This document shows, piece by piece, positions 36,824 through 63,853 of a stretch of 64,000 nucleotides of DNA (the stretch's first letter is position 1; each line of letters begins with the position of its first letter). The stretch spans positions 434,001 through 498,000 of the forward strand of contig NW_020845755.1 of assembly GCF_003704095.1 (NCBI RefSeq), read 5' to 3'. The DNA is from Pocillopora damicornis (lineage: Eukaryota). Both the position numbers and the translations under genes were made by a program. The notes below the pieces were generated by a model. It ran no database searches. It was not told the DNA's origin and saw only the letters and a list, made by a program, of their open reading frames with translations.

Positions 36824-37744
36824 ATGAATGGTACACAAGAACAGAAAAAGTCGACGAGAGCCTTTAAATTATCTGTCTACTTGTTAGCTTTGCGGCCATG
36901 GTCCTTCTCAGCGTCATTTATTCCGGTGGTTTTAGGGGCCGTTTTGTGTTGGAGGGCGACTGGTCTTTTCAGTGTCTCGTTGCTCGTATTGACAATGATA
37001 GCTGTTCTTGGAGTCCACGCGGCCGGCAATCTGGTAAACACGTATTACGACTACATGAAAGGAATTGATAGCAAAGTATCAGACGATCGTACTCTAGTTG
37101 ATCACCTTTTAACGCCTAAAGAGGTTGTCAATCTGGGCGTTCTTTCCTATGGCCTCGCCACCCTTGCCCTTGTGTCCTTGGTTGGATTATCATCAGCGAA
37201 AATGGAACATTTGTCGTTCTTGTTCTTCGGAGGACTATCTGGCTCGTTTTTATACACTGGTGGTGTTGGGCTAAAATATTACGGTGTCGGTGATATTGTT
37301 ATTGTTATCACGTTTGGTCCTTTAGCCGTCCTTTTTTCTTACCTGACTCAATGTGGTAATGTGGCGTTGTTTCCGCTGGTCTTTGCCATTCCTGTGGCTT
37401 TGAGCACGGAAGCTATTCTTCACAGCAACAACACGCGAGATATGGAGACTGACAAAAAAGCCGGTGCAGTAACGTTGGCTATCATTCTTGGCCAGCAGCT
37501 CTCATATGTACTCTATTGCCTCCTCCTGCTTGCTCCATACATGATATGTACTGTGCTCTCAGTCAACTTATCTGTACGTTTCCTTTTACCCCTTATCACG
37601 TTGAGAATGGCTTTCAAATTGGAAAGAAGCTTTCGGGAAGGAAAACTTATTCTGCTTCCTCAACAAACTGCTAAATTGAACTTAATGTTTGGGTTACTGT
37701 ACACTTTAAGTTGTTCAGTTGCCCCTCTAAGTCTACCCAGATAA
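36824..37744 (+). CDS. UBIAD1: UbiA prenyltransferase domain-containing protein 1 (menaquinone-4 synthesis), 306 aa, intronless
   Basis: LALRPWSFSAS, HAAGNLVNTYYDYMKGIDSKVSDDRTLVD, FLYTGGVGLKY, EAILHSNNTRDMETDKKAG; multiple hydrophobic helices. Confidence 0.96.
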   Translation: MNGTQEQKKSTRAFKLSVYLLALRPWSFSASFIPVVLGAVLCWRATGLFSVSLLVLTMIAVLGVHAAGNLVNTYYDYMKGIDSKVSDDRTLVDHLLTPKEVVNLGVLSYGLATLALVSLVGLSSAKMEHLSFLFFGGLSGSFLYTGGVGLKYYGVGDIVIVITFGPLAVLFSYLTQCGNVALFPLVFAIPVALSTEAILHSNNTRDMETDKKAGAVTLAIILGQQLSYVLYCLLLLAPYMICTVLSVNLSVRFLLPLITLRMAFKLERSFREGKLILLPQQTAKLNLMFGLLYTLSCSVAPLSLPR

Positions 37745-61785: not shown

Positions 61786-63853
61786 CTATGATAGGTACAT
61801 ACTAAAAACGTACAAAATTCCAAATGAAGCATATAAGACGGCAATTTTTTGTGGTAGAGTGAAATGTTTCCCTTCAAAACACGCTACACTTAAATTAAAG
61901 GCGAAAGGTAGAGTAAGCAAAGTTAACCCGAAATACAGCGAGGTAGTTGCAGCTTGTAAACCTACTATTACATATGGGAACAACATAAATAAAGTGTGAA
62001 AATAACATGCGCGCTGTGGTCCAACAAGTACTGCCAGTGTCCTGTAGCCAGCTCTGATGTCTGTCTTAAGATCACGTGTGTTTTGACTAGGGGGGAAAAA
62101 ACACGTCAAACGTCACATTGTATTAATAGGAACAATTTATGACCCTTAAGTCGTCTATTCTCAATATCTGACCCAGAGGAACAAGGACTCTGGGAACATG
62201 AATCAATAGTATTACGAAAGCTCAAACTATATGGCCGTACGCATGCGTGTAGAACCTGTGTCATCGGTGTCCACGGAAAGGTTTCGCAAATGGTCGATTT
62301 GTCCGTAAAAGTGCTGGTTGTTCTGCTGCCTTTCTTTTACTTTTCTCTTTTTTGAGACCTTTCAGTTGTGCGAAAAAAAACCCAGCATTTCGACGTTGGT
62401 AATTGGTGCTCTATATGCTGGTCCTATATATATATTCTATATTCTTATATAGATCTATATCTTATATATTGTGGGAATAAAAAGACAAATAAACTACTAG
62501 TTCATCCCTACAGACCTGTTTCGTGGTTGCCCACTCATCAGGGGATTTAATGAGAATAGATCTTTACCATAGTAGCGATGGTAAAGATCTATTCTCATTA
62601 AGTCCCCTGATGGGTGGGCAACCACGAAACAGGTCTGTAAGGATGAACTGGTAGTTTATTTGTCTTTTTCTTCCCACAATATATACATCGCTCTACTCCT
62701 ATGCATTGAGCACTGTCTTACGTAAAGTCAAAATTACTCTTTATATCTATATCTTATATATATCCTATATATATAATCTGTATTCTTAAAAATATTGTGT
62801 ATTGGATTTTTCCTTTATCCAGATCAACCACGAACTTTGAGATTAACAGCCCTTGACTTAAGAAGCGGGAATTTAATTTCGATTCATTATTCTGCCTGAT
62901 AATGGCTTGATTGAAGCCACTGTTACGATAAACGCAAACTTCCGCGGGTATAATGAGGTGCGTAGTGCGAAGTGCGTAGTGCAGCCAAGCGTAACAGGTG
63001 TAAGGATTAGATTCATTACACGAAGTTAGCTTTTTCTCATAATTGCGATGTCTGAGTAACTCAGTCACGAAAGAATATCACTAGCCTAAGAACCAATAGT
63101 AGAAACGAGAATATGTCCTTAGCCCTGTAACCTCGGTCACACTTGACTAGCTTTCGTCGACTTGACGATCTCGTGGGAGGCAACCCGAGTGGTAAGGGTT
63201 AAATTATTCAAGAGACAAGTAAACATGTCTCGCGCTTGAGGTGTCACGAATGAGTTAAAAAAGTAAGAGGCAACTTCCTACCTGTGAAATATAGCTTCTG
63301 TGAATAGCATAAAAGGCAAAGAGTAAGTTACCATCCAAGTATACGACAATTGCCGGTGAACGGTTCCAACCTGTTGAATGTAACTGAACACAAGAGACAG
63401 AGGACCGAATATCCCACAGGCTAACACGTCGCCGACTACAATGTTCTTCAATCCTCCACCATGTAACATTGAAGTGAGAAAACCAGTAGCGTACAGGCCA
63501 AATTCCAGCCTGAATTCTGCTTCAGAGACCACAGCTAGACAGCAAAACGCTGCTGAAGCAAGAACATAACTCCATACCGCCCATTTTGCGCTGATTTCGA
63601 GCGTGACTCGTCTTGTGGTAGACGAAATGAAAAACCTTCGGTCTTCGGCCTCGTAATACGAGTTTGCAAAGTTCCCTGCCGCGTGAGTGAGGAGGATAAC
63701 AAGAGCTGTGAGGAAACATTTCACAACATCAAACTTGCCGTCATGTTTCCAGGCGAGAACTGTCCCCAGAAGAAATGACAAAATCGACGCTGGGAAGGTC
63801 CATGGCTCCAATGATTTAATAAATATGTTGCGTTTGTTTGAGTTAAAAGACAT
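61786..63853 (-). CDS. Divergent UBIAD1-like prenyltransferase paralogue, 290 aa, 2 coding exons
   Basis: Exons 63853-63282 and 62086-61786 (phase 2, 873 nt). The junction rebuilds EAIFHSQNTRDLKTDIRAG. It is collinear with UBIAD1 at 36824 (LEPWTFPAS, HAAGNFANSYY, GD, FGPL, LPQKIA). Confidence 0.88.
62463..62685. repeat. Near-perfect palindrome: two 108-bp arms, 7-nt loop, 5 mismatches
   Basis: 62463-62570 is the reverse complement of 62578-62685, with loop AGTAGCG. It is flanked by TA-rich sequence. Confidence 0.95.
62504..62546 (-). ncRNA. Intact minimal type I hammerhead ribozyme motif (family 2)
   Basis: AUCCC-CUGAUGA-GUGG-GCAA-CCAC-GAA-ACAG-GU-CUGU-A-GGGAU: perfect core, 5-bp stem I, 4-bp stem II with GNRA loop, 4-bp stem III, GUA triplet. 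Confidence 0.8.

Follow-up and report, generated by a model that had tools for sequence, protein, structure and literature searches.

The window, a stretch of 64,000 nt from the coral Pocillopora damicornis (contig NW_020845755.1, positions 434,001 to 498,000), carries towards its right-hand end, on the minus strand, a UBIAD1-like gene whose two coding exons flank an intron with a near-perfect inverted repeat (Table 1). Its arms, 62463–62570 and 62578–62685, are 108 nt each, 95% complementary and separated by a 7-nt loop; they differ at five positions (62478/62670, 62498/62650, 62508/62640, 62535/62613 and 62546/62602), as the first-pass annotation had described from the letters alone. On the sense strand of the host gene, the left arm reads from 62546 to 62504 as a 5-bp stem I, the core CUGAUGA, a 4-bp stem II closed by a GCAA loop, the GAA element and the cleavage triplet GUA. 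In sequence and constrained fold, this segment has the conserved core, three stems and NUH triplet of a type I hammerhead ribozyme, so that the complete motif and predicted cut proposed earlier read as stated. The mirror copy in the right arm does, as also claimed, carry three of the five mismatches, with the loss of core A9 and of a stem I pair.

Is the motif a chance resemblance? Rfam reported no hammerhead family at the locus, returning generic hairpin matches below the gathering score and nothing else, and the lowest-energy fold of the 43-mer alone is not the hammerhead, which lies 2.9 kcal/mol higher. A 27-nt pattern derived from the motif, however, has 42 matches in the genome as compared to none for the reversed control, so the resemblance is not due to chance.

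Table 1. Coordinates of the host gene and of the parts of the insertion, numbered within the window
Feature	Position	Strand	Description
Coding exon 2, UBIAD1-like paralogue	61786..62086	-	Coding frame and splice joint
Host intron	62087..63281	-	1195 nt, GT-AG; joint 62086-63282 in 4/4 RNA runs
Left copy of 17-bp target-site duplication	62453..62469	+	Degenerate TA-rich tract; longest exact repeat between the flanks
Left arm: tailless, 5'-truncated pseudo-LTR copy	62470..62570	-	Sense to host gene; 3' end merges into the duplication
Type I hammerhead motif	62504..62546	-	Core and stems intact, self-complementary stem III (constrained fold, sequence inspection); predicted cut 62509/62508
Junction of head-to-head copies	62571..62573	.	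Gap of 3 nt
Right arm: tailed, 5'-truncated pseudo-LTR copy	62574..62744	+	Begins where the family's TATA-like box ends
Initiator-like TCATT	62595..62599	+	5' ends of family arms cluster 1-8 nt past its A; putative promoter role
Mirror hammerhead copy	62602..62644	+	Predicted inactive: A9G (62613), core-adjacent stem I mismatch (62640), A-to-G (62602)
Tail, about 59 nt	62686..62744	+	On right arm only; common to many other family copies
Right copy of 17-bp target-site duplication	62745..62761	+	Exact repeat of 62453-62469
Coding exon 1, UBIAD1-like paralogue	63282..63853	-	Pfam UbiA E 4e-6, below gathering score

Two canonical-looking UBIAD1 genes are encoded on the same contig as the host (window 36863–37423, plus strand, and G000:C2390:500588–501145, minus strand). 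Nine residues are missing from the host's first aspartate-rich motif, which bears out its earlier description as a divergent paralogue. Since the same loss is common to all eight homologues aligned (24 were found, at 66–99%), the host is an old and conserved divergent UBIAD1 paralogue; together with its homologues, it is a candidate for a conserved pseudo-enzyme or an enzyme of changed chemistry. Within the intron, the insertion leaves about 380 nt to the acceptor and about 540 nt to the donor. The intron is spliced in all four RNA runs (four studies), with a contig depth of 29–63 at the splice joint as compared to 2.5–8 in those parts of the intron that lie at a distance from the repeat. Elsewhere in the window, a high-copy repeat with a 26-nt inverted repeat, very deep in RNA contigs, closes the 3' UTR of the host (61249–61440), and 33848–33956 matches Rfam K_chan_RES above the gathering score, probably as a potassium channel coding stretch.

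Limits and reality of the insertion

The palindrome is not the whole of the insertion. Because an exact 17-bp repeat flanks the larger unit, we delimit the insert as 62470–62744, that is, 275 bp within a degenerate TA tract; in shuffled flanks, an exact repeat of 17 nt was reached once in 3000 trials (mean 8). The outer 7 bp of the palindrome's left arm thus overlap with the target-site duplication, and of the extent given in the first-pass annotation (62463–62685) the arms stand, whereas the full element does not, its tail and duplication having been overlooked. At other sites of the family, the duplication is mostly masked by (TA)n or unseen; it is legible here because the landing site is a degenerate TA tract, while pure (TA)n hides it.

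The first-pass annotation had itself named an assembly artefact or a polymorphic insertion as what would speak against its reading. In all four DNA runs, which stem from four studies, contigs anchored in unique flank cross both insert junctions, and a joint skipping the insert was absent among the contigs listed for these runs. The hairpin centre is spanned without a single difference by at least one contig. This contig belongs to run X1, possibly close to the assembled sample, and that the listed bridge comes from one contig of one run is what a fold-back chimera or a private polymorphism has in its favour. Against this stand the junction contigs from four studies, the five differences between the arms, and a tail and duplication that are asymmetric in the manner of the family. 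With both junctions crossed in four of four runs and no skipping joint, we regard artefact and private allele as effectively excluded. Two RNA runs likewise contain the right junction, their intron contigs being about 1% off the window (in one case, seven differences in 617 nt). A search of JGI metagenome contigs for an empty orthologous intron gave 215 pattern matches, none of which was confirmed. Presence in all four DNA runs fits an old neutral insertion, but also retention by selection.

Parent family and clade placement

What kind of element left this insert? The first-pass annotation had proposed to check copy number, and the repeat indeed belongs to a dispersed family, with at least 114 genome matches to the region (40 of 81 candidates scored) besides those to the motif, and with one partial tandem, at C1282. 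In longer copies, the sequence upstream of the hammerhead encodes SYDGAE and YRDDG (reverse transcriptase), CNCRQKNAC (linker) and VIY...YIGL (endonuclease half). In copies L054/L026 and L059/L025, the frames with SYDGAE/YRDDG, CxCx5C and YIGL are followed without a break by this hammerhead, which starts about 75 nt past the stop codon of the parent reading frame. At the motif level, the terminal repeat is thereby joined to a reverse transcriptase followed by GIY-YIG (L023, with a 392-aa frame, L054 and L059), the CxCx5C linker between the two being read as CNCRQKNAC in L054, L055, L057, L059 and L060. A further copy, L120, has DKT in place of DKG (ADKTT); it can be assigned to the family because it is 94% identical to L054 over 146 nt and shares an exact 27-nt tail match. 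Since its tail end leads (L120:1040–1500) into a 50-nt leader and then the ATG of the element's reading frame and the ADKT motif, the repeat with its tail also serves as leader at the 5' end of the element.

Among Penelope-like elements with a C-terminal endonuclease, the Hydra clade is said to be marked by DKT, CxCx5C, (TA)n targets and hammerheads (Craig 2021, 10.1101/2021.04.23.441226). The likeness extends to the order of reverse transcriptase and GIY-YIG, the hammerhead in the pseudo-LTR and the occurrence in stony corals; targets of our family include (TA)n, and most site ends adjoin (TA)n. By these marks, the family is Penelope-like and probably of the Hydra clade. The GIY-YIG motif halves, judged by eye, have no cysteine pair between them. 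The placement is one by motifs, as no full-length parent was found among the family copies and Pfam returned neither a reverse transcriptase nor a GIY-YIG match on the parent frames. Unlike the Hydra-clade elements so described, the window contains a non-coding stump only, and its tail of about 56–59 nt exceeds the 30–40 bp given for Penelope-like elements generally. The Naiad clade was ruled out by the C-terminal endonuclease and the presence of a hammerhead.

Two other groups of ribozyme-bearing repeats invite comparison. Metazoan Penelope-like hammerheads, as portrayed by Cervera and De la Pena (2014, PMC4209133), are likewise of type I, with a small palindromic helix III suited to dimers and many variable copies per genome, although helix III here can form 3 bp with a 4-nt loop and is thus less minimal. 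The non-LTR retrozymes reported from corals (PMC7229834; 10.64898/2026.07.22.740005) are also non-coding repeats, a few hundred bases long, that contain a type I hammerhead. Yet those accounts concern direct tandem arrays processed to circles, as opposed to a single inverted pair with a protein-coding parent; lacking direct tandem units that each contain a hammerhead, our element was ruled out as a retrozyme. The survey also turned up clusters in which inverted copies alternate (L038–L040, on C3635 and C3657); these copies belong to a more diverged subfamily with about 70–73% identity to the family body. Some of the sites, or places close to them, also harbour a second hammerhead family, which is unrelated to the first, adjoins TA tracts and has a stem III that is a perfect palindrome (L029:2137, L140 and L099).

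Head-to-head copies and the predicted masking of the ribozyme

Among the loci fetched, we counted 41 sites with a match of at least 83% identity (C918 was retained despite a deletion; C54 is an apparent duplicate of C1684). Head-to-head pairs occupy 21 of these, with a gap of no more than 10 nt in 14, and in 18 of the 21 the tail is on exactly one arm (two tails in one case, none detected in two). Some of the 'single' sites have inverted body pieces farther out. At one locus, L092 (C2983), the sequences beyond the two arms resemble each other when read outward, which points to an inverted duplication of larger size or to a misassembly of the locus.

This layout, an inverted copy with a one-sided tail and a junction palindrome, is already published for Penelope-like elements (Craig 2021, 10.1101/2021.04.23.441226; PMC3846280). 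Pen2a of the rotifer Adineta vaga, as depicted in the latter source, resembles our insert in its head-to-head inverted copy, its duplication and its tail at one end, pointing toward the reading frame, and differs from it in that no reading frame lies between the repeats here and the duplication measures 17 bp rather than 8–9 bp. Together with the parent that encodes reverse transcriptase and GIY-YIG, the tail, the duplication and about 20 sister palindromes, these parallels support what had been offered at the outset as the simplest reading, namely a remnant of inverted Penelope-like pseudo-LTRs.

The layout also accounts for the caging of the ribozyme without any special cause, because in a head-to-head pair the antisense arm precedes the sense ribozyme whichever strand is read. 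An intact motif is present in 20 of 36 full-length motif arms, and at nine other sites it lies opposite a full or partial antisense arm. For the present locus, the predicted penalty for adopting the hammerhead fold amounts to 70 kcal/mol within the hairpin and to 61 kcal/mol in a transcript that stops just past the motif. These energies agree with the suggestion that the complementary arm, transcribed first, would sequester the ribozyme, and predict that it is held inactive by its mirror arm. Such ribozymes may be weak as monomers in any case; Penelope-type hammerheads are reported to cleave poorly alone and one required the element's protein (PMC4209133; PMC11167929).

Could the hammerhead nevertheless act as a switch, the left copy escaping the hairpin under some conditions, or pairing via stem III with another copy, and cutting the pre-mRNA? 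Core and stems are intact, and stem III, initially described as near-palindromic and compatible with dimers, is self-complementary here and fully so in 41 of 53 family arms (in three common variants), its 10-mer duplex reaching −9.4 kcal/mol; a dimer model for ribozymes with such a stem is part of the account in PMC4209133. Release would, however, have to overcome the 61–70 kcal/mol penalty in context, the antisense arm covers stem III as well, and the poor cleavage reported for such hammerheads alone speaks against the switch, as does the finding that one of 40 family arm ends lies near the cleavage site. We therefore hold a folding-dependent cleavage switch to be extremely unlikely.

The mutations in the two arms carry no hint to the contrary. 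Two rare variants are common to both arms, which therefore derive from one source; compared with the family, the right arm has acquired three changes and the left arm two. None of the five hit the sense-strand motif in the left arm, an outcome with p ~0.33 for five random changes. Arm divergence is 5%, which ranks sixth from the bottom among 20 sites (median about 7%); C54 and one diverged C918 arm were left out of the divergence and motif comparison. The asymmetry between the arms is compatible with chance, and this copy bears no sign of selection. A family-wide conservation of the core (20/492 cells differ vs 120/1813 downstream, p 0.034) was discarded as evidence because many arms had been found with a hammerhead pattern in the first place.

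A further alternative is that the hairpin, rather than the ribozyme, has been co-opted, the 108-bp double strand being edited by ADAR or diced and thereby tuning the host paralogue or silencing the family. A long, near-perfect hairpin is indeed predicted in the pre-mRNA, the insertion is present in four of four DNA runs, intron-containing contigs occur at low depth in RNA runs, and Penelope copies are described as yielding small RNAs in a rotifer (PMC3846280). T>C differences in RNA contigs, such as A-to-I editing would leave, were located in the flank or in contigs resembling other copies. Against co-option, the divergence of the arms is typical of sister palindromes, the same structure recurs at about 20 sites, and the insertion is much younger than the host gene family; the hairpin may plausibly be edited or diced incidentally, yet this would be no proof of function. 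We consider a co-opted double-stranded RNA regulator unlikely. More specifically, that the host has kept the insertion as a device setting the level of the paralogue, be it through an edited or diced hairpin or a conditionally released hammerhead, seems very unlikely to us. The cleavage switch and the siRNA/ADAR substrate put forward in the first-pass annotation accordingly find no support: masking is automatic, the asymmetry has p ~0.33, and the intron is spliced.

Insertion mechanism and biological meaning

How, then, did the two copies arise? Informative in this respect are the 5' ends of the family, here taken as BLAST boundaries of arms that are not fully independent and counted without body-attached, gap-bounded and C54 arms. 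Forty arms have a free 5' end; of these, 18 begin at element positions 25–32, 4 at 1–24, 14 at 33–60 and 4 later; for the 22 arms beginning at or before position 32, the excess at 25–32 over a uniform distribution has p ~4e-8. The cluster corresponds to window positions 62598–62605 and follows a TATATAA box with TCATT about 20 nt on, reminiscent of the TATA-like box 20 bp ahead of an initiator-like site noted for Pen2a (PMC3846280). It is likely that many cDNAs of the family reached the 5' end of an RNA that had started inside the repeat. The arms in the window, in contrast, begin at element positions 1 and 5, upstream of the cluster, and so likely derive from a longer read-through RNA. That one of the 40 ends lies near the ribozyme cut is in line with uncut RNA as the template, as demonstrated in vitro for an element of another clade, where both DNA strands were extended (PMC11167929); the same work showed for a lizard element that two start sites of reverse transcription define the tail.

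From these parallels, we propose the following course of events. The element's endonuclease would have cut the two strands of the TA tract at staggered positions, whereupon reverse transcription would have begun at two places inside the element RNA, one start including the tail and the other leaving it out. Both cDNAs would have halted, about 110 and about 170 nt on, and been joined head to head, either as two products primed from opposite strands or as one that folded back. Later mutations would have struck both arms at random. In today's pre-mRNA, the antisense arm would be made first and zip onto the emerging ribozyme arm, and the hairpin would be removed along with the intron.

The insertion is thus, very probably, a 275-bp dead end: two short copies, placed head to head, of the terminus that bears the ribozyme in a likely Hydra-clade Penelope-like element, with a ribozyme that is predicted to be inactive and a likely neutral part in its host. 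With its ribozyme predicted to be locked by the mirror copy, the insertion is in all likelihood an unremarkable passenger of an intron that splices normally. A regulatory device, if true, would mean that a coral had domesticated a Penelope ribozyme as a switch; as things stand, the locus itself matters little and has modest value as a record of an insertion mechanism. In the family, the one-sided tails, the clustered 5' ends and the scarcity of ends at the cut agree with the in vitro work of PMC11167929, whose model they extend, by inference, to a family resembling the Hydra clade.
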